From Bdellovibrionota bacterium (lineage in GTDB: Bacteria > Bdellovibrionota_C > UBA2361 > OMII01), in contig JBILEW010000011.1 in the NCBI GenBank assembly GCA_044351885.1, forward strand, positions 2,180 through 66,179: DNA of 64,000 nucleotides, given 5' to 3'. The position numbers and the translations under genes are program-made. How positions within the stretch are numbered: the first letter of the stretch is position 1; each line of letters opens with the position of its first letter. Shown here one piece after another: positions 18,527 to 64,000 of this stretch. The notes beneath the pieces were generated by a model that saw only the letters and a list, made by a program, of their open reading frames with translations, searched no databases and was not told the DNA's origin.

Positions 18527-20275
18527 CTACACTCCCTTATGAGTCGACATGAATCCCTTCAAACGGAGGTCTGAGGCAGCTCCCTCCACGCGTCCGGTGA
18601 GACCGAGGACCGGCAACTGAGGAGAAAGCTCTTCAACCAGGCCTTGTATCCTCTCCCGCGCCTCGCTCTCTGGATCCTGAGAACCTTGGTCAGATGTCCC
18701 GTTGGAAGATTCTGAGCCATTCTCTCCATTGGTGGCACCACCTAACGCAAACATCTCGTGCAGCCACACCGAGGTATTGAACACGAGCGACACCTGTTGG
18801 TCTTCCAGGGTTCCCTCTTTGATCCCACGCAGATCTCGAATGGACAGTGACTGCTTCTCACAAGAGGCTCGCATGCGGCCCAGGAGCGCATCCGAGGAGG
18901 CCGCAATCCAGACAGCACCACCTGCGCACGTGGTCGAAACACCTTTGCTCGAAACGAAGTCACCAGGACGAACAGCCACGTCTGGACCAGCAGGAGCAAC
19001 GACGGCTAGACCGACATCGAAACGCCTGTCCTTTCCAGAAACGTCCCACACCAATCCCAAGCCCGAAGCGTCGGTAGCGTGGGCTGTCTGAACACTCCAC
19101 TCGGCAACCGGTTTCTCGAGCGGAAGATGCGCGCTGAGAGCTACCGTCGCCATGGCGTCGTGCGGAAGCGCCGCAAGAACCCCACTCGCAGTATGCGGAG
19201 CCAAGGCGTCGAAGATTCGTGCTCGTGGTACGGTTGCTCCAGATAGCTCGCTTGCCGTTGCCGAAAGCTCGAAAGATATCGAGAGCGGCCACTCGGGAGC
19301 CCCCACACTCGAAACCAGAAGTTTATCCATGAAGCTTTCGGGACGCAGCACTGCGACGACACTCCCCTGCTCGCGTGGTGCTGCGAAGGCGTTCTGCGCC
19401 ATCACGTTGAGCAAGCCCTCTAAACTCGAGCCAACCACCACAATATTTCCTTTTTGGGTCAGGAAAAGAGGGCGTCCGTAGAGGCGGATCTCGATCAGAG
19501 GCTGTTCGTACCCTACAGTGGTGTACGCCGTCGCAGCCAATCCGCGAATCAGGATCGGGAGAGCTTTGTCCACCAGGTGTGCTTTCGTACGATCGAATGC
19601 GAAGACAAGACCTCCCGCACCATGCACAAGATCGTAGTGAAACGAAGCGTCTGCAGTGACCGCATCACGTATCAAAGGCTGAAGAAACTCGCCCTTCCAA
19701 TCATCGAGCTGAAGCTCATCGGCCCGCACCTTCAAAACATCGGCGAACTGTTTTACCATCCCCTTCCACAGAGCAGATTGACGGAAGGCTGTCACTTTCG
19801 GGTTCGACTCATACCACGCGAGTGCGTCCGCCCCACGAACTAAGAAAACCGAGGCTGCGACAGGATTTCGAAATACGCGCCACGTTGCAACCAGTGGGCA
19901 AGGCACCGGTGTTGGCTCCCAAGGGTAAGGCTTTCGTTTCGGAGGAGTGACCCCGAGATCTCCACCGACAACATCCTGGCACTGGCTCGGAGCCGCGGTC
20001 GCCGAGCCGCTGGCAGTTTCACTTAGCGGAGTGGCGGTGGCGCTACTCGGGACCTCACTACTAATTGACGATCTCTTCGGGGCCGTCGTATCCAAAAACG
20101 CCACGTGCAACTCGAGGACGGGAACATCCGGCGACAAGGCATCGCGTAGCGAGTATCCCCTCAGAAAACGCCCCATCGCCATGACTGCACAGGTCACGAG
20201 GAACGCCACTAGGGCAAGTATGACTACGATACGAACGGCGCGGGGCTTACCCCCTTCGGCCTGAATCTCTTCCAC
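18527..20275 (-). CDS. membrane-anchored hypothetical protein (582 aa) of the A2M operon, YfaA/DUF2138-like by size and position only
   Basis: An N-terminal TM anchor (KPRAVRIVVILALVAFLVTCAVMAM) is followed by a low-complexity S/T/A linker. The stop is 2 nt before the A2M start. No motif was recognised by eye. Confidence 0.6.
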   Translation of the reverse strand: MEEIQAEGGKPRAVRIVVILALVAFLVTCAVMAMGRFLRGYSLRDALSPDVPVLELHVAFLDTTAPKRSSISSEVPSSATATPLSETASGSATAAPSQCQDVVGGDLGVTPPKRKPYPWEPTPVPCPLVATWRVFRNPVAASVFLVRGADALAWYESNPKVTAFRQSALWKGMVKQFADVLKVRADELQLDDWKGEFLQPLIRDAVTADASFHYDLVHGAGGLVFAFDRTKAHLVDKALPILIRGLAATAYTTVGYEQPLIEIRLYGRPLFLTQKGNIVVVGSSLEGLLNVMAQNAFAAPREQGSVVAVLRPESFMDKLLVSSVGAPEWPLSISFELSATASELSGATVPRARIFDALAPHTASGVLAALPHDAMATVALSAHLPLEKPVAEWSVQTAHATDASGLGLVWDVSGKDRRFDVGLAVVAPAGPDVAVRPGDFVSSKGVSTTCAGGAVWIAASSDALLGRMRASCEKQSLSIRDLRGIKEGTLEDQQVSLVFNTSVWLHEMFALGGATNGENGSESSNGTSDQGSQDPESEARERIQGLVEELSPQLPVLGLTGRVEGAASDLRLKGFMSTHKGV

Positions 20276-41394: not shown

Positions 41395-42810
41395 TCAATC
41401 CAGCGGGACCAAAGACTCCGAGAATGGCGGCCTGAGCAAGCGACTCCTTCCCACCTTAGCCGATTGAGCCAAGATCGGATGGGTCTTCTCTAGACGTGTG
41501 AGCTGATTGAGGTGATCAGCCGTCTGACTTACGAGGCGGGCGACGTCTCCGTCTGCTACACCAGAGAGCCTCAACAATCCCGAGAACTCCGCCCACGTCT
41601 CCGAATCCATCCATGTGATGACGGTGAGCGCCGCATCTGGAAGAACCTCGACCTCCGCCTTTCCCGGCCCATTGTACGAGTCCTTGATGCGCTGGACTAC
41701 CTCACGCATAGCATCGAAGAGCGCCGGCTTAATCGGATTCTGCTTGAGTTTGAAGTACGGTCGATGTGGGTCGCCTGCGATACTCGCAACGAGTCCGACG
41801 AGTTCGAAGAGCGCGCAATCGTCAAAGAGCTTTGAGTCGATGCATTCCCCCAGTTCGAGCACTAAACTCGTGCACAGTTCGGCGGCCCAAGAGCCCTTCT
41901 CCGTGAGCCCACCCCCTTCGACGTACCCGAGTGTCCTCAATCCATCGAGGGAGAGGTGCAAAGAGGTCTCCTGCTTCCGGTCCAATTCGTCCGCCTCTTT
42001 GAGAGTACGCCGCACTCTCTTCTCAGCCTTCTTTCGCTTCTCCCCCTTGAGCGACCCATCGGCTTCGATGCGCTGCTGTTCCTCTATCGCCTGCTCACGC
42101 AAACCGCTCGCGTTCTTGCGGTCGAGAAACGCCGCCAAACTGCGCTCGACCGTGTATTCGAGGTCGTCTACGTTGCGATACTTGAGGAGATTCAGCACAG
42201 TCGAGGGAGCTGCAAAGTATGCAGAACGGAGCGGCTCCGGCGGTCGCTTGGAGACCTCCAGCAGTACGCGTGCGTCCGAGAACTTGCTTGGCGTGATGAC
42301 ACACACCCCGACGGCATCCTTTCCTCGTCGTCCCGCACGTCCTGCCATCTGCTGGAACTCGGCTGCCGAGAGCACACTGAAACCTTCCGAACCTCGCTTG
42401 CTGTGCGCAGTTATCACCACGGTACGCGCGGGAAAATCCACTCCTGCTGCGACCGTTCCTGTCGCTATCATCATCCGCAACATGCCGCGGGACATGAGTT
42501 CCTCGAGCAGCAACCTCCAGATCAGAAGTTGCCCTGCATGGTGAGCTCCCACCCCAGTCGAGATCAACGCCTGGTATTGCGGATAGGTGGTGATGAACTC
42601 AGGCTCAAATTTGTACTTGTCTATGATCGCTTGAATCTCGCTCTGCAACCGCTGCTGTTGTGCTGCGGAGAGTATAGCGTTCTTGTTGCGCGCCACGCTC
42701 TCGACATCGGCATCGCACTGTTTACGCGCAGTGCGAAAGAGGATCGCCGGAAGGAGCTCGTCACGCTCAAGCTCTCGAAGAATGACGGAAACGGGGAATT
42801 CGACCTGCAT
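41395..42810 (-). CDS. Ski2/HelY-like DEVH helicase, C-terminal part (RecA2 lobe + helical/DSHCT-like region); the ORF track extends it to 42888, but the ATG at 42810 with an SD is the likely start
   Basis: LLPAILFRTARKQCD, GVGAHHAGQLLIWRLLLEELMSRGMLRMMIATGTVAAGVDFPARTVVI, FQQMAGRAGRRGKD. C-terminal segment: GDVARLVSQTADHLNQLTRL. Confidence 0.8.
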   Translation of the reverse strand: MQVEFPVSVILRELERDELLPAILFRTARKQCDADVESVARNKNAILSAAQQQRLQSEIQAIIDKYKFEPEFITTYPQYQALISTGVGAHHAGQLLIWRLLLEELMSRGMLRMMIATGTVAAGVDFPARTVVITAHSKRGSEGFSVLSAAEFQQMAGRAGRRGKDAVGVCVITPSKFSDARVLLEVSKRPPEPLRSAYFAAPSTVLNLLKYRNVDDLEYTVERSLAAFLDRKNASGLREQAIEEQQRIEADGSLKGEKRKKAEKRVRRTLKEADELDRKQETSLHLSLDGLRTLGYVEGGGLTEKGSWAAELCTSLVLELGECIDSKLFDDCALFELVGLVASIAGDPHRPYFKLKQNPIKPALFDAMREVVQRIKDSYNGPGKAEVEVLPDAALTVITWMDSETWAEFSGLLRLSGVADGDVARLVSQTADHLNQLTRLEKTHPILAQSAKVGRSRLLRPPFSESLVPLD

Positions 42811-42811
42811 C

Positions 42812-43654
42812 TTATCGCCTCCTCCGACCACCACCTGAGCGCGAGCGACGACCACCGCCAGATCTTCCGCCACGCTCGCGACGCTCACCTCGCTCCTCGC
42901 GGCCCGCGCGGTAATTCTTTACTCGCGTTCCAGATTCGTCGAGAGGCATACTCCCGTAGTAGTGCGCGACCTCGGGAGAGAGATGGCCCTTCTCGTCACT
43001 CAACGGAATGACACCAAATCGTGGATGCATGAAACCGAACCGAAGCTCCACAGGACGCTCCGTCTTCATGACCACTCGGCACTCCTTGTTGCGAACCTCC
43101 TCTATCCATGCGGCTATCTCCTGCGCATTCGAGATCGAGGCCGACAACATGAGCAGTGTCGAAGAGCTCGGAGTCAGGATGATGCTCTCCTCCCAGACGG
43201 CGCCGCGTTGAGGATCCGCGATATAGTGCACCTCATCGAGAATGACCAAGGAGTAACGCCCGGACCCCCGGTAGAGGTCGTTGCGGTATATCTCAGTCGT
43301 AGCTATCACAACATCAGAATCCCCCTCGATCTTCCGGTCTCCGGTCAGCAAGCCCACCGAGTGCTTGGGGCCGAAGGTATGTTGGAATTCGGTATATTTG
43401 GTGTTGGAGAGGGCTTTGAGCGGGGTGGTGTAAATAGAATGGTGCCCCCCCTCGAGCAGATTCCGTATCGCCTGAACCGCGATATAGGTCTTGCCCGATC
43501 CGGTAGGCGCCACCACCAGCGTATCGATACCGGCCTTTAGGTTTGAGATCGCCTCTTGCTGGAAGTCGTCAGCAACGAAGTCCGTTTTCTCTGGAACTCC
43601 GAGCCCCGATAGGAACTTCTCTCGCGATTCGTGGATCGCCTTGAATTTCATCAT
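42812..43654 (-). CDS. Ski2/HelY-like DEVH helicase, N-terminal part (RecA1 lobe) ending in an Arg/Gly-rich tail
   Basis: FQQEAISNL...LVVAPTGSGKTYIA, TPLKALSNTKYTEF, LTGD, VIATTEIYRN, LVILDEVHYIADPQRGAVWEE, MLSASI. The tail is RGERRERGGRSGGGRRSRSGGGRRRR*. Confidence 0.8.
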   Translation of the reverse strand: MMKFKAIHESREKFLSGLGVPEKTDFVADDFQQEAISNLKAGIDTLVVAPTGSGKTYIAVQAIRNLLEGGHHSIYTTPLKALSNTKYTEFQHTFGPKHSVGLLTGDRKIEGDSDVVIATTEIYRNDLYRGSGRYSLVILDEVHYIADPQRGAVWEESIILTPSSSTLLMLSASISNAQEIAAWIEEVRNKECRVVMKTERPVELRFGFMHPRFGVIPLSDEKGHLSPEVAHYYGSMPLDESGTRVKNYRAGREERGERRERGGRSGGGRRSRSGGGRRRR

Positions 43655-53542: not shown

Positions 53543-54007
53543 CTATGCCATGATGAACCCGAGAACGAAACCTACGGTGCAGAAAGCTGCCCCGAGCATG
53601 AATGCGATTGCAGCTGCGTAACGATCCCTCGTCAAAAAGAGAGTAGCGTAACACAGAGCACCGCAATCAATCGCCATGCAGAGCGCCACCTGCACACAGC
53701 CCCATACGAAACTGACATCGCCCGACGCATTGAATCGTCCCCCGATGTCGTAAGGCCACAGAGCGAATCCCCCGATAAGGGAAACCACCATGTTGGTTAT
53801 CGCCTCAGGTATGACCCATCGAACGAGTAGGCCGATGACCACACCGACAGCTACCAGGAGCGCAAACCCCCGTGCGAGTCCCATACTGTGACGGGCTAGC
53901 ATTCGTACGACGACTGCCACAACCACCAACGCAATTACCACGACACACAGTGTTGCCCCTACTCCAGCGTGAAGATGGGACGGCAGGACCTGCGTAGTCT
54001 CCGACAT
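53543..54007 (-). CDS. small 4-TM membrane protein (154 aa), last gene of the triad operon
   Basis: Four hydrophobic segments. There is an excellent SD (ggaaggagg), with a 6-nt spacer (tttgt a) before the ATG. Confidence 0.7.
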   Translation of the reverse strand: MSETTQVLPSHLHAGVGATLCVVVIALVVVAVVVRMLARHSMGLARGFALLVAVGVVIGLLVRWVIPEAITNMVVSLIGGFALWPYDIGGRFNASGDVSFVWGCVQVALCMAIDCGALCYATLFLTRDRYAAAIAFMLGAAFCTVGFVLGFIMA

Positions 54008-54180: not shown

Positions 54181-55068
54181 TTAGACGGAGCCGAGATCCC
54201 TTGCATGCTGCCATTCAGCGGCGTTGATCTGTTGAGGTTTGAAGCTGGCTATCCTGGCATTCATGGCGGCTACCTGCTCCGGTGTAAGAGGAGTCCCAAG
54301 ATACGGACGTAGCTCAGTCGGCATGAGCTGACCTTCGTAAATCATGGTCTTCATGCGCTCGCGCAAGTTCGATGTCGATATATGTCCGTTCCGAAAGTCA
54401 GCGGCGAGATAGCCACTGTCGAACACGCATTTTTCATCCATCACCGTTTCCCCAAGTTGCCCCATCAAGGCCGTTTTATCGCCGGACATTAGAACATTGC
54501 TCCACGTTCCTCCGCCAACCGCGAACGTCAGGTGACAGTTGGAGATGTTGACGTCGGTGAGATAGAGTGTGTCGCACTGCAGGGTGAGCGCCGCGTTCAG
54601 ATCTACCTTCTCCAGCGTCGTGCACGAAGCAAGCTTGAGCGAGAGCTTTGCATCCGATACGCTCGCATTCGAAATACTGCTTATCGTGTAGCCCTTCTCG
54701 ACGAGCGACTGGAGGAATTCGGTACTGAGCGGTTCCCGGGCACTGCCCGCTTTCGTGGACATGAAGTTCGTGAGAAGTTCAGCCTTGAAATCCCACGCGG
54801 AGCGATTCACAACTTCCGACGGTGGCACAAGGAGGCGAATACTGGTCGGTGCCGTTTTGTCGGGACGTACGCCGCCTTCGGAGGTCCATTCGACCTCAAC
54901 CGCGTTTATGTTCGCTGCATTTATCAACAGTTGCCCATCGGCAAACCTCTCTCCGCTTACGACCTTCCAGGACCTCGCCCTGTCGAAGAGGCACCCTGAA
55001 AGAGACTCCATCTCTTGTGCAACTTTTCCCGCGCTTTCTCGTGCAGCTCTTACCGCGCTCATCTCCAT
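54181..55068 (-). CDS. hypothetical protein (295 aa) with beta-helix/pentapeptide-like repeat region
   Basis: LSLKLASCTTLEKVDLNAALTLQCDTLYLTDVNISNCHLTFAVGGGTWSNVLMSGDKTALMGQLGETVMDEKCVF. This region is paralogous to a segment of the upstream 825-aa protein. An SD (ggaaagggag) is present. Confidence 0.7.
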   Translation of the reverse strand: MEMSAVRAARESAGKVAQEMESLSGCLFDRARSWKVVSGERFADGQLLINAANINAVEVEWTSEGGVRPDKTAPTSIRLLVPPSEVVNRSAWDFKAELLTNFMSTKAGSAREPLSTEFLQSLVEKGYTISSISNASVSDAKLSLKLASCTTLEKVDLNAALTLQCDTLYLTDVNISNCHLTFAVGGGTWSNVLMSGDKTALMGQLGETVMDEKCVFDSGYLAADFRNGHISTSNLRERMKTMIYEGQLMPTELRPYLGTPLTPEQVAAMNARIASFKPQQINAAEWQHARDLGSV

Positions 55069-55187: not shown

Positions 55188-57665
55188 CTAGTCGACTCGG
55201 TACAGCTCAGACGTGGTTATCGGACCGCGACTGACAGGGGTGCCAACAACTGCCGGCAACCGCACGGCTCCTTCGTAATAGAAATCGAGCGCCCTCAACA
55301 ACACAGCCCTATCGTCCAGAGCATGTGCCTCCATGTTACCGAGATCGGCCGAAAACCGGGTCGGCTGCGACTCGCTCTGTACGATCGTGTCCAACAAAAC
55401 GCGGGGAGGGAGTCCCCTCACTCGATCCCCAAAGAGGATACATAGAGCATGCAGGGGACTACCGGACGGCACAGAGATCCGATCTCTAGACCGCCGAAGC
55501 GCCAGACCTCTATCGACATGCTGCCCTTCGCTCGCGGGCATTCCTCTGTAGAACGAGACCCTGGGGTCCAATGTCATCATGATGGAGACGATCTGTTTTC
55601 GGGAAAAGGCGTCGGCACGCTGCTGTTCGAATGCTTGCATGTCTGCAAGCGACAAGCGGCTGAGGGAGAGCTGACCCCGAGACGATGCTGGCAGCATTTC
55701 TGGGTTTACAACTAGACCAGAGAGACGACCCTGAAGATCATTCCCAACAAAGTCTGCTAATCGCATGTCGAGTTCAGAGGCCTCCCAAGGAACAACACAT
55801 GCGGAATCGAAGCTGCTTTCCCCCAAACTGCCGCTCATCTTTGTATGCGCACTAGCGTGACAATTTCTCCATGACGCACGCGAAAGCCTCAGATCGACCG
55901 ACAACTCCCCGAAGCGCACATTTTCGAAGTGTGCTGAGTTACCCCGAATTCGAACAAGCGTGGCGGGACCATCGAGATGCACATCGCGCACGACCGCACC
56001 TTCTGCCAGATTAAAGTTCAGAAACGCAGCCCCAGCAGCGCGAGCTGGCTGAAATCGGATATTGTCGATCGTGATGACTCGGCCAGAGGTGAGCAGACTA
56101 CGTATCAACTCCGAGTGCAGGGGATCGTCTGCTATCTGATCTTGTTGCGCCTGGTATGCGTTCAGTAGCTTGGCTGCATACTCAGCGAAGGCCTCGTCCC
56201 TGCTGATTTGACGAGATAGCTCGATTTCGAGGACGCTCAGTCGAGACCGATCAAGGCAGGCTGCGGAGCTCACCTGTCGAGCAATTCGCAGCACGTGGTT
56301 ACCATCGGACTGTGCGACTATGGTCGCCCCCTCCGACGGCGCTAGCATCTCGCTCCGATCGAATACAGCAACATTGCGACCTGGGCCTGCCCCGGACACT
56401 ATCTCCTCATCTGAGGACGGAGCGCTGTGGGACATCTTCCCTAGAGGTTCCGGCCTCTTTCGAATCAGGTGATGCTGCACGCCATCAGCTCTACCGATAT
56501 CGCGAATCAGCTCGAAGCCGGAAAAGCTGCGGAGGTAGCCACTCAACGAAGCCAGCGCGTCGATAGCAGTTTGAATCTCTGGATTCCCTACCTCTATTGT
56601 TGGCGTGTAGCGTTTCGGTAGAGGCACAGCTCGCTCCTCTGCGACCCACACCTTGACGGGAGCTAGCCGCATGGTGCTCTCGTCCTCGAGCTCCTGCCAC
56701 CCCATCTTCACGGAGGGCGCCTCAAGCTCTCCGAAATCGGCGGGATTCAAACCTCTCGGTGCTTCTTGCTCGAGAGAAGCAGTCTGAGAAATCTCCAACG
56801 GTTCGTAGGCTCCCTGCGATGCTGTATCCAGGTCGAGAGGTTTAAGCTCAGCTAGGGCAACACCATACTTCGACATGAGAGCAGCCATACGCTCCTTACG
56901 CGCTGATATCGGCTCGTCGGAGATGCGCTTCTCGTATCGCATCTTCCACCAGCGTTCGGTGTAGGCTGCCTGCTCCTCGGGCTTCACCCGCGCCAGTGCC
57001 TTCTCGGAGGCACGCTCGAGACGGAATGCGTGATTGACCCGCGCCACCTTATTCAGGTTGAATGACTGCGGATTGTCTACCTGGTTGCGATAGTCGACGC
57101 CGCTGCACGGCTCGAGCGGCTTGTACGGCTCTATCCCTCGCAGGCGGAAGCGAGCTTCGTATGCACCTGGGGAGAGCGCCATCAGTGCGCAACGGGCCAT
57201 CTCTCTCCGACTCGCCGAAAAACGGGGATTTCGGAGGTAGCTCTTCCAAACGAACACCTTTCGCTCGAGCATCTCGATATGCTCACTCAGGACGGGAGCG
57301 ATTCCAAGAATCGGATCTGGCGAATATCTCGATTGCTGGGGTATCCGAGTGAGCCATCCATCGTCCGCATACTCACCCTTCTTCAACAGCCCTATTTTTT
57401 GCGCGAATTGAAGCAGCTCCTTGAGGTATCCAGCCTCCTTCAGGACCCTTTGACGTGTCTCACGCTCCTCGAGCTGCAATTCTACTGCGACCCGTCCGTA
57501 CGCTGCGCCCTTCGAGGGGCTCAAACCCTCCGCCAGTAGCAAGGGCATTGCAAGCGCCGGGGTATCCAGAGCCAACGTAGTTGCCCGATGTAATATTTCA
57601 CTGCGCATTGTGCGGCTCCACGAGAGACGGTGAAAGATGCTGTGAGGATGGCGATTTAAAGACAA
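55188..57665 (-). CDS. large hypothetical protein (825 aa; ATG at 57608 with SD ggag is the more likely start) with C-terminal beta-helix/pentapeptide-like region
   Basis: ITIDNIRFQPARAAGAAFLNFNLAEGAVVRDVHLDGPATLVRIRGNSAHFENVRFGELSVDLRLSRASWRNCHASAHTKMSGSLGESSFDSACVV. The remainder has no recognisable motif. Confidence 0.7.
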   Translation of the reverse strand: MSLNRHPHSIFHRLSWSRTMRSEILHRATTLALDTPALAMPLLLAEGLSPSKGAAYGRVAVELQLEERETRQRVLKEAGYLKELLQFAQKIGLLKKGEYADDGWLTRIPQQSRYSPDPILGIAPVLSEHIEMLERKVFVWKSYLRNPRFSASRREMARCALMALSPGAYEARFRLRGIEPYKPLEPCSGVDYRNQVDNPQSFNLNKVARVNHAFRLERASEKALARVKPEEQAAYTERWWKMRYEKRISDEPISARKERMAALMSKYGVALAELKPLDLDTASQGAYEPLEISQTASLEQEAPRGLNPADFGELEAPSVKMGWQELEDESTMRLAPVKVWVAEERAVPLPKRYTPTIEVGNPEIQTAIDALASLSGYLRSFSGFELIRDIGRADGVQHHLIRKRPEPLGKMSHSAPSSDEEIVSGAGPGRNVAVFDRSEMLAPSEGATIVAQSDGNHVLRIARQVSSAACLDRSRLSVLEIELSRQISRDEAFAEYAAKLLNAYQAQQDQIADDPLHSELIRSLLTSGRVITIDNIRFQPARAAGAAFLNFNLAEGAVVRDVHLDGPATLVRIRGNSAHFENVRFGELSVDLRLSRASWRNCHASAHTKMSGSLGESSFDSACVVPWEASELDMRLADFVGNDLQGRLSGLVVNPEMLPASSRGQLSLSRLSLADMQAFEQQRADAFSRKQIVSIMMTLDPRVSFYRGMPASEGQHVDRGLALRRSRDRISVPSGSPLHALCILFGDRVRGLPPRVLLDTIVQSESQPTRFSADLGNMEAHALDDRAVLLRALDFYYEGAVRLPAVVGTPVSRGPITTSELYRVD

Positions 57666-57703: not shown

Positions 57704-58387
57704 TCACTTCAAAAGTCCACGAAGGGAGCTTCGAGAGTGATCATCAAAGGCTTTCAGCAGTGCGCTGCGGTCGAGCCCAGACTTGATGATGCACGTATCC
57801 TCTAGTCCCAACGAACGAAAGAATGAAGCTACCTTCTTCCCCCCGTCAGCTCCCATGGCGAGCGCATTCATCTGGAACCCGCGCGCGGTGAAATCCGCGA
57901 TGCGGGGCCGGATATGCTCGGCTCGGGAACAACTGACCGGGTAGGCAGTCGAGTCGATCTCAACTCCATCCAGACCATCGGTTGCGATCATGACCGCGCA
58001 CCGAATACGCACTCCTTCCTCTGTGGCATCAGCCACGAGCTCCTTGAAGGCATCGAACACCCCCCCCAGCATGTCGAGAACTGGAGAACTAGCACTCTGC
58101 GCGATGGCAGAGGGCTCGATCTCTGGCACGTCCTCGAGTGGCTGCCAACCTGGAGAGAGCACTCCATTGAAGCTGACCAAGAGCACCCAGGTTTTTTCCC
58201 CGAGCTTTCCGGCCTTCAATGCTTTCAAAGTGCGATTCGCCTCGCTGACTTGCAACGAGAAGAGCGATTCACCACCGATCTTGGTTTGCACCGTGCTCGG
58301 CGAATTGTCCAGAAATACGACCAAATACCGATAATCGGCACTCAGTTCGGGCTTTCGGACTAACTGACCATTTACTGAACTAGACAT
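57704..58387 (-). CDS. von Willebrand factor A (vWA) domain protein, TerY-like (227 aa)
   Basis: MIDAS motif YLVVFLDNSPST (DxSxS), followed later by VMIATDGLDG. Confidence 0.8.
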   Translation of the reverse strand: MSSSVNGQLVRKPELSADYRYLVVFLDNSPSTVQTKIGGESLFSLQVSEANRTLKALKAGKLGEKTWVLLVSFNGVLSPGWQPLEDVPEIEPSAIAQSASSPVLDMLGGVFDAFKELVADATEEGVRIRCAVMIATDGLDGVEIDSTAYPVSCSRAEHIRPRIADFTARGFQMNALAMGADGGKKVASFFRSLGLEDTCIIKSGLDRSALLKAFDDHSRSSLRGLLK

Positions 58388-58423
58388 GCTTGACCATCCT
58401 TCCTCACGAAATCGTGAAAAGAA

Positions 58424-59464
58424 CTAGGAACCCAGAGCTCTACCCAAACACGGGCAGAGCTGCGCTGACACTTCATTCTTGCACTTTGGACAACGAGTCC
58501 AATGTGCCTCTGCTAGCAAACCCGCAGGAAAAGCTCCTCGACGCCCGCCTTTGAACACCTCGTAGAGGTAGTTGTAGAGCGGCTCGCTAAGGGCCTCCAA
58601 CGGACGTCGCATACTCGACGATTTGACGTTGATATTCCGGTCAAAGATGCTGATACCAGACAACGCCCGGACTCTCAGCCGATCAAGTTCCGGTCTCTTC
58701 AGAGCCTCGCGATGAGCTCCGTCCCACGGCGCGCGCCCGACAAGAACATCGAGCACTACGCACGCGAATCCGAACCAGTCCGACTCCTTTGAATAGTCAC
58801 GCCGACGTAACCAGGCACGATGATCGTTCTCACGCATAGATAGTTCCTGCACGAGAAGCTTCGGATCGATGGTCTTTTCGCATATCGTCTCGCACGGATA
58901 TCCTGGGATATCGTATGCGAGGGTATCGAATGCTACGAACCCCGATGGTCCGAATCCTACGTTGGATGGATTGACCTCTCCCATCAGGACCTTGCGCCTA
59001 TGGCACTCGGTGATAAATGCGTGCAATTCGAGCAGAGCAGCAGTCGCCTGCTGAGCTGTCCAATTTTTCGCATCATCCTTGAAAGAGCGAAGATCTTCCA
59101 CGTAGTCCATCGTATGACCGACGACGTAGCTGGACCCATCAAGATAGATCGGAAGTTTTGGAGCGATCGCCTTGGCGGGCAAAAGCTTTTTAACGACCTT
59201 CACTTTCTTGACGAACCGCCTACGTGTAAACCACGACGCCTGCGTATCAATCAACTTACGCTCGAACCGGAGCACCGTGTCTCCTACTATTCGAACCCAC
59301 GCCTCTCCGCCGTTCTTGATCAGTCGGGCATCAAAAGACGGAGACGGATTAGCACCCATCTCCTCATCCTGCAGAAGCTGCGCCAAATCAGCGCGAGACA
59401 GCGGCAGATTGTCGGACCGACGCAGGAGAGCTCCCTTGTCGTTCCGTTCGAGACGAATCTCCAT
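58424..59464 (-). CDS. atypical Ser/Thr protein-kinase-like protein with C-terminal zinc ribbon (346 aa)
   Basis: Catalytic-loop-like CHRRKVLMGEVNPSNVGF (HRD-x-KPSN with Asp replaced by Glu), a DFG-like FVAFDTLAY, and C-terminal CPKCKNEVSAQLCPC. The SD (aggag) lies inside the end of the upstream gene. Confidence 0.7.
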   Translation of the reverse strand: MEIRLERNDKGALLRRSDNLPLSRADLAQLLQDEEMGANPSPSFDARLIKNGGEAWVRIVGDTVLRFERKLIDTQASWFTRRRFVKKVKVVKKLLPAKAIAPKLPIYLDGSSYVVGHTMDYVEDLRSFKDDAKNWTAQQATAALLELHAFITECHRRKVLMGEVNPSNVGFGPSGFVAFDTLAYDIPGYPCETICEKTIDPKLLVQELSMRENDHRAWLRRRDYSKESDWFGFACVVLDVLVGRAPWDGAHREALKRPELDRLRVRALSGISIFDRNINVKSSSMRRPLEALSEPLYNYLYEVFKGGRRGAFPAGLLAEAHWTRCPKCKNEVSAQLCPCLGRALGS

Positions 59465-59466
59465 GA

Positions 59467-60315
59467 TTATTCTCCTGTGGAAAATGCGCGATCGGCACCG
59501 CCGTCGCTAGGAATGCGCCACACCCCCACGAGTGTGGCATCGTCTTTCGGCAGAACTGAGTTGGACGACACTGCGAGCGAGCGGCTCATCAGCGATTCGA
59601 TCCAATCCGTAGCAAGCGGACTACCAGGAACTCCTCGCCTCGCCAGCGCTGGGAGCAGCTCCAGAACACCATCGGTCCCTACCATGAAGGAATCGATGTC
59701 AGCGGTTCGCCCGACGTAAATCAGGCGAATCTTTCCGAGCGGAAAACGCTCATCCGACTCGGGCGATGTATCTACGCCGTAGATCGGAAGATCAGGACAG
59801 TTGTCTTTCGGAGATACGATCGAAAAGACCTCTCCGTTGACAGCCATGGTCCCGTCTCCGCAGGCATAGCCTACGACCACATCCTCGGTGATTAGAGCGC
59901 CCACCAACGTCGCCGATAACGACGATGCTGCCGGTTCCCCTCCACCGAGATACGATTTTGCCTTGGTCAATTCTTTAGACACCTCACCATTGAGCCATGC
60001 CACGAACTGACCTGCGAACTGAGTCGGGCTCATCTTCCGTGCGAACTCGAGGAGCTGCTGCTCCACGTCCACTACGAGCCGATGAACAGCGCGCGTGAGA
60101 ACTATAGAACCGAGCCTCGAGTCTTTTGCACTACTCACACCATCTGAGACATTCAACAGCATCGAGTGCTGTCGAACCTCACACAGCCCTGAGTCCTGAC
60201 TTTCAAGGCCAGCAAGCCGATGGGCTTGTCCAGTCATCGAAAAGCGCCCAGATTTGAATTGAGCGAACATAAAAACCTCCCGGGTATGCACCCTTGAGAA
60301 CCTTAAAATCACCAT
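59467..60315 (-). CDS. PP2C-family Ser/Thr phosphatase (likely start ATG at 60270, 267 aa)
   Basis: RLAGLESQDS, LLNVSDGVSSA, SATLVGALITEDVVVGYACGDGTMAV, FMVGTDGVLE, KDDATLVGV. An SD (gggagg) lies 5 nt before the ATG at 60270. Confidence 0.8.
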   Translation of the reverse strand: MVILRFSRVHTREVFMFAQFKSGRFSMTGQAHRLAGLESQDSGLCEVRQHSMLLNVSDGVSSAKDSRLGSIVLTRAVHRLVVDVEQQLLEFARKMSPTQFAGQFVAWLNGEVSKELTKAKSYLGGGEPAASSLSATLVGALITEDVVVGYACGDGTMAVNGEVFSIVSPKDNCPDLPIYGVDTSPESDERFPLGKIRLIYVGRTADIDSFMVGTDGVLELLPALARRGVPGSPLATDWIESLMSRSLAVSSNSVLPKDDATLVGVWRIPSDGGADRAFSTGE

Positions 60316-60590
60316 CTCTCACAACGATGCAGAGCCGCGACTGGCGCATCGTCCGTCCGACTTACCATCGTTGCGAGAGCAGTATTCCCTCTACCCACTA
60401 TTCCTAATGTACGTTCGGGTATAGCTTGCTCTCCGGCTACCAGCCTTCCTCCTAGAATTCGGAAGACAACTCCGCAGATGCGCTGAATCCTTCTCGGAAC
60501 TCTCCGAGGGAGGAGAAGGACGCCAACTGCGCTACAAATGGCGCATGACACGGCCTGACACTTCTGTGAATCGAACCTGTAAGGAGGCGC

Positions 60591-61100
60591 ATGACTAGCC
60601 CATCGCTTGGTGAGCGCATGTCGCGTCGACACGACGAGCTGCGGCAGGAGCGCCTAGAATCGTCAATTCGACGAATCGGATCTCTGCCGCCCCCTGCCGA
60701 GTCGACTCTGGCGCACCTATCCGTGAACCCTCGACTCCGTGAAGCGGTTTTGTCGGACGATGCCGCCCTCTGGCCACTCAGAGTGCTTGCCCTTCCGAAG
60801 GTTCCGGAGTTCGACAAACTCGAAGCGCAGACCCTCGTCCTCCTGGATAGGATAAATGCAGGCGCAGAGAATGCCCCCGACGGTCCTCGAAAAGAAGCGG
60901 CGCAGACTGCGCGAGACCGACTTCGACTAGCCTATCTCTTCCTGCGTTGGCCGCAGAACCGAGAGCTTGCGGCAGAGGCTCTTGCGCGATTTTCCGGAGA
61001 GCGCCCCTCTTTCGAGACGATTCCACTACCCAGTGTGAAAGAGAGTCTTTTCGGATTGCTAGGGGCTGTCTTGAAGGACTCGGGCACTAAGCAAGATTGA
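60591..61100 (+). CDS. hypothetical protein (169 aa), divergent from the triad operon
   Basis: ORF only. It lies 23 nt upstream of the 819-aa gene on the same strand. Confidence 0.45.
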   Translation: MTSPSLGERMSRRHDELRQERLESSIRRIGSLPPPAESTLAHLSVNPRLREAVLSDDAALWPLRVLALPKVPEFDKLEAQTLVLLDRINAGAENAPDGPRKEAAQTARDRLRLAYLFLRWPQNRELAAEALARFSGERPSFETIPLPSVKESLFGLLGAVLKDSGTKQD

Positions 61101-61123: not shown

Positions 61124-63583
61124 ATGATTATCAGACTCGATAAACAAGCATTACCCCCTCTCCCCTCCAGGGCAGAGATGCTCGCGCTCGCTAACGATTC
61201 CACCCTGGTTTTGGACTTCGCGCGCGAAATCTGTCGTTCTTCCCAGTTTCTCCTGACATCCGAATTCACGCAACGAGCCCTTCTCTATCTGGCGCCGCAT
61301 TCAAAGACACTCCAAAAGTGTTGCGATACGCAGTCACAGCTCGAGGCCACCAACAGGAAAGTCAGAGAGATCCAAGTCGGATTGAGTGAAAAGATGCTCG
61401 CGAGTAAGGACGCTACTGGCGAGGCTGCCTTGAGAGCCTATCGGGAGGAGACTCATAGAGCACTAAACTCGCTGAAGAATGGCAATGGTCTGAATTTGGG
61501 TTCCAACCCCACCGACATCCCAGACCTGAATGCACTGTGGCATGAGGCGGAGACCCTGCTCACTCGAAATCAAAATATCCTCGAGAAATTCTCCAAAGAG
61601 ATAGAATCAGCGGTGGCGCTCTTCACGCAAAACGCCGAGAACATGTTGGATCACGTTGCGGCAACCGACGCCATGGCCCTAGCAGCGGCGCAACTCTGCA
61701 CGCTTTCTTCCTATTATCCTCGAGGTTTGTCTCCCGAGGCTGAGGCCGCCCGAGCTGGTTTGCTTCAGGTCTCTGGGGACAGCGAGACCATGCAGCACGT
61801 ACTCAGCCTCTACGAACTGGCCGAGATGGCAGCAGCCGGCCAGAGCGCCCCCCAATTACCGACACAGGGCTACTTCGCTCAACTAGCAAAACTCAAGAAA
61901 CAGCTTTCGACATCTTCTCCGTCAGCAGACCTTCGAGTACTGACAGAATTGAGGGACCTGTACGTCAGTAGTGGGAGCACCGCTCTTGCGTTTTACGCTG
62001 CTCTAAACTGTATTGCGGCGGGAGACACCTCTCACCAGACACTCTTTCTCGCCTTCGAGAGCGCCGACCAGCTCGGAATCCTGTGCACGCTGGCCGAAAG
62101 TCTGCGAAAGGTGCCGGATCACGCCAACAAACGAGCTATTCTACTACAGCTGTACCGGATCGCCCTGCGCACCGGGGATTCGAGCGGACAACAGCCGCTT
62201 GCTGCACTCAAAACTAATCACCTCATGTCCGCCGAGAAGAGCTTCGCGGAGTCCCTAGAATGCGAGAGAGCTCAGCAATATGACAAAGCCAAAGAGAAGG
62301 CAGTCTCTGCATGGTCGCATGCAAAGAAGGACCTCGCAAACTTGTCTCATCTGGCGCTGCAGTCCATGAAGCTTGCACATCAAATCCATTTCAAGATGAA
62401 TCATACTGCGGAAGAGAATGTGAACTTTTCCGACACCGTAGTGATACAACTCCTCAAGCTCGATTCGGAGGATAGCCTGGCTTGGGAGATACTCTGTGGA
62501 GGCGTTCTCGATGAAAGCGCCCCTGGCAAGCAGCCCTGGGAAGCGCTCGACCAACTTCTTGCAACAGTACGGAGCTCCACAGGAGCCTATATTGCAGGAG
62601 CATACGCTCACCAGAGAGGCGACATCCCACGTATGGTCCATTATCTCTCGAAAACGGGCGATCATTCGCAGTCAGCGCTACTAGCAAAGATTGCATTAGC
62701 GGATCTTGCTCACACGCAAGGAGACCACAAGAAAGCTGACCAACTGATCGGGTACGTGAGCACGTGGGCACCTCATCATTCCCTGCTTCCGCGACTTGCT
62801 CTACCAGGTGCGTCGGTTCGCATACGCAAGCCGGGGATTATTCCGCCACAAGGGCTACCAGTCGGGGAATGGGAAAGTACTACTCGGCTCGCGATAGCGA
62901 ATGCCCTGGTCGCTGCACAAAGAGGAATGCCGCCTGCAGAGGCGCTATCCACAATACCGGAATACGCCAAGTTACGGAATCTTCTCGAACCTCACTCCCC
63001 TCTCTTCCAGAAGTGTCGCGACACTGCTCGCGAGCTGAAAGAGTACGTAGACACGTTAACCCCGTTCGTCGACCAGTCGAACCCGCTTACATGGGGCCAT
63101 CTGCTGTGGTCCTCGAATCAGATTCACTGGAGCAGCGCGGTACACATCCACGAGGCGCTCAATCCAGGAGGCCACACGTACACGCTGGGCCAGATGGTGA
63201 ACCTATTGGATGACCTCGAACGAGCTGTCGTGGTCCTCGATCCATGGATGCAACACTTTGCTCCTCTGCGCTTGCGCGACCGCATCTCACAGGCAGCGCA
63301 AAGTGCCAGGCGAGCCCATGGAAGATGTACCGAGCTTTTCACGACGTCGAAGGATGAGGCTGCCAAGGCCCAGAGCGTGGTTGAATTAATCTCCCAAATC
63401 ACGCAGGTGCGGGACCTACTTGTTTCCGAAGTCAGCAACAACCTCTTGAGAGGCAAAGACGCGCTCGCTGAATGGACCGACAAGCTGCTCTCGCTCCCTG
63501 CGGAAGGCCTGCTCGAAACCAGCTTCCATAAGAGGTCCCAGATACAATCCAATCGGAAAGTCCGACTCAAAGAGGGACCGTAA
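61124..63583 (+). CDS. large all-alpha, TPR-like helical-repeat hypothetical protein (819 aa)
   Basis: Long ORF. The sequence is helix-rich with TPR-like stretches (AGAYAHQRGDIPRMVHYLSKTGDHSQSALLAKIALADLAHTQGDHKKADQLIGYV). No catalytic motif was seen. Confidence 0.65.
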   Translation: MIIRLDKQALPPLPSRAEMLALANDSTLVLDFAREICRSSQFLLTSEFTQRALLYLAPHSKTLQKCCDTQSQLEATNRKVREIQVGLSEKMLASKDATGEAALRAYREETHRALNSLKNGNGLNLGSNPTDIPDLNALWHEAETLLTRNQNILEKFSKEIESAVALFTQNAENMLDHVAATDAMALAAAQLCTLSSYYPRGLSPEAEAARAGLLQVSGDSETMQHVLSLYELAEMAAAGQSAPQLPTQGYFAQLAKLKKQLSTSSPSADLRVLTELRDLYVSSGSTALAFYAALNCIAAGDTSHQTLFLAFESADQLGILCTLAESLRKVPDHANKRAILLQLYRIALRTGDSSGQQPLAALKTNHLMSAEKSFAESLECERAQQYDKAKEKAVSAWSHAKKDLANLSHLALQSMKLAHQIHFKMNHTAEENVNFSDTVVIQLLKLDSEDSLAWEILCGGVLDESAPGKQPWEALDQLLATVRSSTGAYIAGAYAHQRGDIPRMVHYLSKTGDHSQSALLAKIALADLAHTQGDHKKADQLIGYVSTWAPHHSLLPRLALPGASVRIRKPGIIPPQGLPVGEWESTTRLAIANALVAAQRGMPPAEALSTIPEYAKLRNLLEPHSPLFQKCRDTARELKEYVDTLTPFVDQSNPLTWGHLLWSSNQIHWSSAVHIHEALNPGGHTYTLGQMVNLLDDLERAVVVLDPWMQHFAPLRLRDRISQAAQSARRAHGRCTELFTTSKDEAAKAQSVVELISQITQVRDLLVSEVSNNLLRGKDALAEWTDKLLSLPAEGLLETSFHKRSQIQSNRKVRLKEGP

Positions 63584-64000
63584 GCACTCGTGGAGCGGTG
63601 AGGACCTCCGAGAATTATCCTGAGGCTCGAGACCGGCGTCCTCTCTATGCAACTAATCGAGCGATACGCCGGTAGGCATCCCCCCGAGTTCGATCTTTAC
63701 GAGGCGCCCCGTAGGTTTTTCTGGGACTACAATCAATAAAGCAGTACCTGGAGGAAATAGCCAGGGAATCACTATAGCTCCCCACTCCAGGTTCCCACCG
63801 ACAGCGCCCGTCAACCTACGCTCTCGTCGATCAATAAGTCTATAGTCGCCTCCGCCAATCGCGGGCGCAGCCCGCTGTAGTATGGAGGAAGCCCGGCAAG
63901 ATACGTGGAACTTAGTGACTCTACTCAGTGAATCGGCGACGGTTACACAGACCCTGCAAGCAATTTACATCGGCAGGCGCCTCGCTCGCCGTTTCACCGC

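Follow-up and report, generated by a model that had tools for sequence, protein, structure and literature searches.

Triads of a von Willebrand factor A (vWA) protein, a PP2C phosphatase and a Ser/Thr kinase with a C-terminal zinc ribbon were defined as TerY-P triads by Anantharaman, Iyer and Aravind (2012) (PMC11090510, PMC4978471), and published triads of this type sit as regulators inside larger, variable gene clusters (PMC11090510, PMC4978471, PMC7159879). The corresponding set of Escherichia coli K-12 is yegL-pphC(yegK)-yegI, in which PphC dephosphorylates the kinase YegI (bioRxiv 10.1101/819920, 10.1101/303594); the catalytic loop of YegI (VGDxxQxS, with DSD) is atypical, yet the kinase is active, Lys39 and Asp141 are essential for its autophosphorylation, and the D141N variant is dead (10.1101/819920). 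TerY-P-like modules have also been reported as stand-alone anti-phage systems, the tested kinases carrying a C-terminal OB (oligonucleotide/oligosaccharide-binding) fold (Gao et al. 2020, summarised in PMC11090510), and the TerY-P clusters of Helicobacter pylori are eroded (PMC4978471). Here we describe a triad of this kind encoded on the minus strand of a 64,000-nucleotide stretch of DNA (the window; contig JBILEW010000011.1 of assembly GCA_044351885.1) from a freshwater Bdellovibrionota genome, a metagenome-assembled genome (MAG) of 4.0 Mb. On balance, it is probably a divergent, shortened phospho-signalling triad of the YegL/PphC/YegI type, carried in one operon and serving as a switch of a larger intracellular assembly.

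The triad and its relation to described systems

Gene coordinates were taken from a six-frame list of open reading frames (ORFs), and the junctions were read straight from the sequence. First in the putative operon is the gene for a PP2C-type Ser/Thr phosphatase (59467..60270, minus strand, 267 amino acids), followed by those for a YegI-like protein-kinase-fold protein with a zinc ribbon (58424..59464, minus strand, 346 amino acids) and a stand-alone cytoplasmic vWA-fold protein (57704..58387, minus strand, 227 amino acids). The PP2C gene ends in TAA, 2 nucleotides (nt) before the ATG of the kinase-like gene, which has an AGGAG 8 nt upstream of it, within the PP2C gene; the kinase-like gene ends in TAG, and 36 nt containing GAGGAAGGA separate it from the ATG of the vWA gene. 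The ORF list and the junction reading both agree with the initial annotation, made from the letters of the window, which had described three consecutive minus-strand genes 2 and 36 nt apart, each with a Shine-Dalgarno sequence within or just after the preceding gene; the motif strings that it quoted are likewise all present in the translations. For the PP2C gene, the ATG at 60270 appears more likely to be the start than the alternative at 60315 (282 amino acids), because a GGAGG lies 5 nt upstream of it and because a protein of 267 amino acids is also called in a near-identical contig and in a relative with 84% identity.

The close packing of the genes is kept in relatives, with 2-nt gaps, 4-nt ATGA overlaps or a 28-nt overlap, and the three genes are predicted to form one operon. 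Ratios of non-synonymous to synonymous substitution rates (dN/dS) of 0.09-0.21 for the vWA and kinase-like genes, calculated against relatives with 72-86% protein identity, indicate that the triad ORFs are genuine genes under purifying selection and not chance ORFs.

Profile-profile comparison with hhalign matched each family to its E. coli counterpart, with probabilities of 93% for the vWA profile and YegL (E = 2.6e-7), 95% for the PP2C profile and PphC (E = 1.7e-8) and 96% for the kinase profile and YegI (E = 4.8e-9), as against 0.1% for unrelated window proteins used as negative controls. Because all three proteins match their counterparts and the controls do not, the triad as a unit belongs, at the level of profile homology, to the YegL/PphC/YegI class. 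The likeness to the E. coli set (bioRxiv 10.1101/303594, 10.1101/819920) extends to the loop type, G-[D/E]-x-N-x-x-[N/S], to a Cys motif behind the kinase domain and to a cytoplasmic, stand-alone vWA protein. The two sets differ in gene order, which is PP2C-kinase-vWA here and vWA-PP2C-(yegJ)-kinase in E. coli, and in the length of the kinase, since the 346-residue protein ends straight after its zinc ribbon whereas YegI has 648 residues and a long C-terminal region; moreover, the position of the essential Asp141 of YegI is occupied by Glu, and the neighbours of yegL-pphC-yegI are wholly different from those of the window triad.

The phosphatase assignment is strong in the hidden Markov model (HMM) check of the initial assignments (Pfam PP2C_2, E = 8.1e-15, 55 bits with a cut-off of 24). 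Its metal-binding motifs QD, DG, GDG, TDG and DD are invariant in an alignment of six homologues reaching down to 25% identity, and since every metal-binding residue is kept the enzyme probably has Mn/Mg phosphatase activity.

The vWA assignment was reached by another route: the 227-residue protein has no match in Pfam, NCBIfam, PADLOC or PHROGs, and a PDB sequence search with its profile returned nothing relevant. In its AlphaFold2 (AF2) model (mean predicted local distance difference test score, pLDDT, 81; predicted template modelling score, pTM, 0.82), however, the fold is that of a vWA domain, the top 50 Foldseek matches in the PDB all being vWA domains (E = 2e-6 to 3e-4), among them Rpn10, SpaC, TFIIH p44/p34, Ku80, integrin I domains and CMG2. 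The metal-ion-dependent adhesion site (MIDAS) is complete, consisting of D27-x-S29-x-S31, S101-P102 and D137 in ATDG, and D27, S29, S31, S/T-P at 101-102 and D137-G138 are near-invariant over 26 representatives. The profile also aligns with the Pfam-VWA protein of a distant operon, with DxSxS and TDG in register (hhalign E = 2.9e-5). The vWA/MIDAS assignment of the initial annotation, for which profile HMMs gave no match, thus holds at the level of predicted structure and profile-profile comparison. Since the full MIDAS site is kept, the protein can probably hold a metal ion and, via the metal, an acidic or phosphorylated partner peptide. With P0026, a vWA relative of ~260 residues used in place of the window protein, as tblastn query, the sole match in the plasmid collection was a haloarchaeal vWA protein and the phage collection gave none; no link to annotated TerY emerged.

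By its architecture the triad is of the TerY-P type, apparently a divergent and shortened version. It combines a vWA protein with MIDAS, a PP2C and a kinase fold fused C-terminally to a CxxC...CPC zinc ribbon, with the adjacency and co-occurrence of the three genes that characterise the type; it lies in a larger, variable accessory cluster as the presumed switch, and some lineages have lost parts of it through internal deletions, as has happened in H. pylori. The TerY-P-like label given to it at the outset therefore stands as regards architecture, homology class and kinase zinc ribbon (PMC11090510), but the kinase active site is substituted, with Glu for the catalytic Asp and an uncertain beta-3 Lys. 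A further difference is that the window triad is not linked to Ter genes: their absence had been noted for the window, and for TerD it extends to the whole 4.0-Mb genome, in which Pfam TerD has no match while control genomes were positive (TerB and TerC were not searched separately). Nor are there restriction, McrBC, helicase or nuclease partners here. The systems of Gao et al. 2020 have the same three-domain composition, but their kinases end in an OB fold instead of a zinc ribbon, and they stand alone, whereas the window triad never does so in its closer relatives. PADLOC-DB 2.0.0 gave no TerY-P match for the triad, a negative that says nothing because the library does not recognise E. coli YegL, PphC and YegI either.

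The nearest relatives outside this short family are operons of a long type (L011, L019 and L020), arranged PP2C, kinase (600-700 residues), a protein of ~330-650 residues and vWA. They share the order PP2C, then kinase, then vWA, 25% identity in the kinase and a detectable vWA relationship (profile E = 1e-9 to 3e-5), but the beta-3 Lys is present in them, as is the catalytic Asp (VGD/IGD), their kinases are extended by a large beta-rich domain at the C terminus, and an additional gene separates the kinase and vWA genes. The operon of the distant kinase homologue P0012 (25% identity), for instance, runs PP2C_2, kinase (606 residues), 321-residue protein and Pfam-VWA protein. Sets of this composition, with a kinase-zinc-ribbon-beta-rich protein, a PP2C and a vWA protein, have been linked to GAP1-N2 GTPase systems (PMC7159879). 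At L011 (5270-10499, GCA_964384765.1), the genes for PP2C_2, a 606-residue zinc-ribbon kinase, a 321-residue protein and a Pfam VWA protein are followed by one for a NUDIX/NrtR-type regulator.

The window's own genome encodes a second, different triad-like set on contig C138 (5486-12083, minus strand). It comprises a 941-residue protein in which a metallophosphatase-like motif, GDxxDR...GNHE, was read by eye, a 318-residue vWA protein with DNSGS, GGTPL and TDG, and an 806-residue kinase with the Lys and VGDLKFQN intact that shares an N-terminal domain with the 941-residue protein.

The active site of the kinase-fold protein

The kinase-like protein had been proposed from motifs, and its fold is borne out by profile and by structure comparison, although the Pfam Pkinase score (20.6 bits) lies under the gathering score of 31.7 and the meaning of the odd catalytic loop had been missed, together with the Glu in place of the catalytic Asp. 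PADLOC gave weak matches to generic kinase models. The best PDB match of the family profile is AtMLKL3 (PDB 6KA4, E = 2e-5), and StkP is matched over both lobes (E = 7e-5). The AF2 model is of low confidence (pLDDT 57, pTM 0.62) and was for that reason used for the fold class alone; Foldseek matches it to protein kinases only. At the level of profile and predicted fold, then, the assignment holds. The protein is basic (net charge +10), starts with a small N-terminal domain and ends 7 residues past a C-terminal Cys4 zinc ribbon, C325-x2-C328 ... C337-P-C339, whose CxxC...CPC pattern is invariant in the alignments.

The alignments place N168 as the Mg-binding Asn and D180 as the DFG Asp, both of which are conserved, and the alphaF motif SDW is invariant. 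The catalytic loop, however, reads MGEVNPSN, and hhalign and HMMER both align Glu163 with the catalytic Asp. Glu is found there in all five short-type lineages (the window, L005, L010, L018 and L022, down to 28% vWA identity), whereas the Asp is retained in the long-type relatives L011, L019 and L020 and in YegI. Of the two residues essential in YegI, Asp141 therefore corresponds to Glu163 in every short-type member, and the equivalent of Lys39 is ambiguous, being either R66 or K70. K70 varies among the lineages, with Arg at its place in L010, Ser in L018 and Asp in L022, and the alphaC Glu is absent from the window protein.

The loop bears a close likeness to that of plant MLKL: HGELNPSN in AtMLKL3 is nearly identical to MGEVNPSN of the window protein, GE(L/V)NPSN being common to both. 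The kinase-like domain of plant MLKL is without the canonical phosphoryl-transfer residues, and its authors suggest that it is a catalytically inactive pseudokinase (10.1101/681015). MLKL differs in being a eukaryotic cell-death executor with a HeLo domain, and the likeness is probably a convergent loss of the same residues, not a sign of shared ancestry. Because of Glu163 in place of the Asp, the uncertain beta-3 Lys, the missing alphaC Glu and the MLKL-like loop, we lean, if only moderately, toward the 346-residue protein being a pseudokinase or a very slow kinase.

Conserved partners, distribution and decay

The initial annotation had the triad standing alone in a block rich in orphan genes; in closer lineages it is instead the core of a conserved cluster of ~10 genes. 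Gene order was followed by tblastn of the window neighbours against related loci, and the gene tables of metagenome contigs concur. The order PP2C-kinase-vWA, whose conservation in relatives had been proposed as a check, is the same in every intact related locus and in seven intact loci altogether; it is found in the window, in contigs with 84-86% identity and, with the vWA identity in brackets, in L005 (50%), L009/L010 (43%), G096/L018 (39%, from a different family of the same taxonomic order) and L022 (28%). The ~10-gene cluster is conserved in five diverged lineages, and the partners hold in L005, L009/L010, G096/L018 and the 84-86% contigs. Since L022 keeps the order of the triad with other genes upstream of it, the triad appears to be the portable core.

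Behind the triad and co-oriented with it lies the gene for an 806-residue orphan protein (55188..57608, minus strand; called from ATG 57608, or 825 residues if from TTG 57665), a conserved partner with homologues at the same position in L005, L009/L010, L018 and L007 and a dN/dS of 0.21; it has no Pfam, PADLOC, PHROGs or PDB match. It is followed by a 295-residue orphan (54181..55068, minus strand), a conserved partner by tblastn synteny that is duplicated in G096 and has no family or PDB match. Next comes the gene for a 154-residue protein that the hydropathy scan marks as a multi-pass membrane protein (53543..54007, minus strand); it accompanies the cluster in close relatives only, being present in the 84%-identity contig and in a 248-kb contig and not detected by tblastn in L005, L010 or L018.

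On the other side, a divergent intergenic region (60271..60590), read from the sequence and presumed to be a shared control region, separates the triad from a second operon on the plus strand. No sigma-70-like consensus was found within it, and scans for promoters and terminators gave no more than shuffled sequence would lead one to expect. The second operon encodes a 169-residue orphan (60591..61100, plus strand), a conserved partner by synteny in L005, L009/L010, L018 and L002, and an 819-residue, all-helical, weakly TPR-like protein (61124..63583, plus strand), also a syntenic partner, whose family profile gave weak TPR matches in the PDB (E = 0.0035). Residues 76-190 of the 819-residue protein also weakly match a PHROGs family of small terminase subunits (E = 3e-5), which we take as coiled-coil bias. 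Three window proteins of ~820 residues were considered as paralogues, an idea that was rejected, as they are not paralogous.

The cluster continues beyond the window on contig C102 (L014 1-2732) with a coiled-coil protein of ~230 residues, a 405-residue CDC48-like AAA+ ATPase and a 202-residue charged protein. The last ~110 bases of the window's contig (C13; window 63900-64000 and beyond) are ~90% identical to the start of C102, and the assembly break between them is probably due to strain variation. In the 248-kb contig, from the same organism, the array is contiguous and reads trypsin-like, 202, AAA 405, 230 / 819, 169 / PP2C, 346, 227, 806, 295, 154; the trypsin-like lipoprotein gene after the AAA+ set occurs in the window's genome only. 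The ATPase (L014 901-2118, minus strand) matches Pfam AAA and AAA_lid_3 and, with E = 1.5e-60, the D2 domain of p97, placing it in the classical AAA clade; it has a single module and an N-terminal TPR-like stretch and also matches the IetA and TRIP13 models in PADLOC. By this affiliation the cluster differs from the MoxR-vWA ternary conflict systems, which need an AAA+ of the MoxR clade (PMC7159879). The ATPase gene is flanked by genes for two highly charged, fast-evolving coiled-coil proteins of ~200 residues (L014 3-635 and 2124-2732): the 211/230-residue protein is marginally similar to its counterpart (E = 0.001), and the 202-residue protein has no similarity to the protein at the same position in L010. 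An ESCRT-III/Vps4-like set composed of the two charged proteins and the AAA+ ATPase was considered and dropped, there being no Pfam support. Signal peptides and membrane segments are absent from all cluster proteins except the 154-residue one, which makes the triad proteins cytoplasmic by prediction.

The family is very rare. Of 1.84 billion representative proteins searched by HMMER with the vWA profile, only 27 matched at E <= 1e-3, nine of them at E <= 1e-30; 4 of 124 species genomes of the phylum have a match, as do two of the 25 genomes in a first genus-level sample, the window's own included. In a sister species, represented by a Bdellovibrionota MAG from a lake (G009; L002/L013, JBIIOE010000220.1) and also by a 12.6-kb JGI contig, the copy has decayed: a deletion joins codon 89 of the 169-residue gene to codon 41 of the kinase gene, with loss of the PP2C gene, the shared control region and the starts of both genes that flank this region. 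The 806-residue gene is lost as well, as is the side with the ATPase; the vWA gene and what remains of the kinase gene still have open reading frames. This erosion resembles that of the TerY-P clusters of H. pylori. Because the module is absent from 120 of the 124 phylum genomes and is broken by deletions in G009, its distribution and decay fit the pattern of a dispensable accessory system.

The GC content of the triad block matches that of the remainder of the window, and the flanks are chromosomal housekeeping genes. Across the orphan-rich block (47.9-64 kb) and the first C102 genes, no convincing defence-model match was obtained, and no integrase, transposase or phage gene was recognised. 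At L009/L010 (~17000-18800), ~6 kb downstream of the cluster, there are an HTH_17 (excisionase-like) gene, a ParA-like ATPase and an AAA_22/TPR STAND-like protein, and CHASE2 sensor genes lie upstream; these surroundings may hint at a mobile or island context. Elsewhere in the window (41395-43654, minus strand), two neighbouring ORFs encode a Ski2/HelY-like helicase, one with DEAD/ResIII (42812-43654) and the other with Helicase_C plus DSHCT (41395-42888).

Proposed role and alternatives

By analogy with YegI/PphC, and following what has been published on vWA and TerY-P modules, the triad would act as the regulatory switch of a larger intracellular assembly. The kinase-fold protein, either a slow or atypical kinase or a sensor that binds a nucleotide or nucleic acid, would sense or slowly write a phospho-signal, which the PP2C would erase, resetting the phospho-state. 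The MIDAS of the vWA protein would bind an acidic or phosphorylated segment of a partner and so couple the phospho-state to one large partner protein, and the AAA+ unfoldase would remodel or dismantle the resulting complex. What the assembly serves is a guess from the patchy distribution of the cluster, an accessory stress or conflict function being most likely. Several observations weigh against this proposal. The AF2 model of the kinase-fold protein is poor (pLDDT 57); the position of the beta-3 Lys differs by aligner, being the invariant Arg66 (VLRF) according to MAFFT and K70 according to hhalign and HMMER; Glu163 could still support catalysis, as the base; the partner proteins have no recognisable enzymatic or effector domain in Pfam, PADLOC or PHROGs or in comparisons of partner profiles with the PDB; and L022, the most distant short type, keeps the triad order with different genes upstream, which confines the partnership to the closer lineages.

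The most substantial alternative, which we regard as possible but would not favour, concerns catalysis: if Glu163 served as the base in catalysis and K70 were the Lys that anchors ATP, the 346-residue protein would be a fully active atypical kinase, and the triad would work exactly like E. coli YegI/PphC, the PP2C reversing autophosphorylation. YegI itself is active with an atypical loop, N168 and D180 are conserved, two aligners place K70 at the beta-3 Lys, and an intact PP2C partner implies that there are phospho-substrates; but K70 gives way to Arg, Ser and Asp in L010, L018 and L022, respectively, the alphaC Glu is lacking in the window protein, the GE(L/V)NPSN loop is shared with a plant protein that is likely to be an inactive pseudokinase according to its authors, and the D141N mutation inactivates YegI. 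The remaining alternatives concern function. One is that predatory Bdellovibrionota use the triad as a Ser/Thr signalling module particular to their lineage, for housekeeping or development (in a life-cycle step, for example) and not for conflict. This would be in keeping with chromosomal housekeeping flanks, a GC content like that of the rest of the window, strong purifying selection and components that are all cytoplasmic, yet the module is missing from 120 of 124 phylum genomes and almost the whole genus and is broken by deletions in G009, a pattern that fits a dispensable accessory function, and we think this explanation quite unlikely.

That same patchiness (four phylum genomes and two in the genus-level sample) and the decay in the sister species would suit a self-sufficient TerY-P anti-phage system like those that Gao et al. 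2020 tested heterologously, in which the three genes alone sense infection and abort it, as would the vWA, PP2C and kinase architecture and the reports of TerY-P-like modules as stand-alone defence systems (PMC11090510). However, what follows the kinase in the tested modules is an OB fold instead of a zinc ribbon, the catalytic Asp is replaced here, seven further genes are co-conserved in closer lineages, and the surroundings offer neither a convincing defence-model match nor a recognised integrase, transposase or phage gene, and this explanation is quite unlikely in our estimate; the missing PADLOC match, being uninformative, adds nothing on either side. A bolder extension of the switch model makes the ~10-gene cluster an undescribed intracellular machine for conflict or stress, known so far from Bdellovibrionota-type MAGs and related metagenome contigs only. 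Its YegI-type kinase would have turned into a dead or repurposed pseudokinase that senses nucleotides or nucleic acids and that, with the MIDAS adaptor and the live PP2C, gates the assembly of large orphan scaffold proteins, and the CDC48-like unfoldase would remodel what they form. We consider this unlikely; if true, bacteria would have their own counterpart of executioner complexes that are gated by a pseudokinase, such as MLKL.

Kinase/PP2C/vWA triads occur widely among bacteria, and their mechanism is unsolved; no more is known of even the E. coli set than that its kinase autophosphorylates and that this is reversed. Triads of this class being common, the interest of the present one lies in its conserved Asp-to-Glu state and its fixed partner set. 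It offers a natural experiment: phosphatase and MIDAS show full conservation, while the kinase has been trimmed to fold and zinc ribbon, with Glu at the place of its catalytic Asp across deep divergence. Fixed orphan partners and a CDC48-like ATPase make it a small, defined system for finding what such triads control, and if the 346-residue protein is inactive, the triad can work without a kinase activity of its own, which would change the reading of the whole class.

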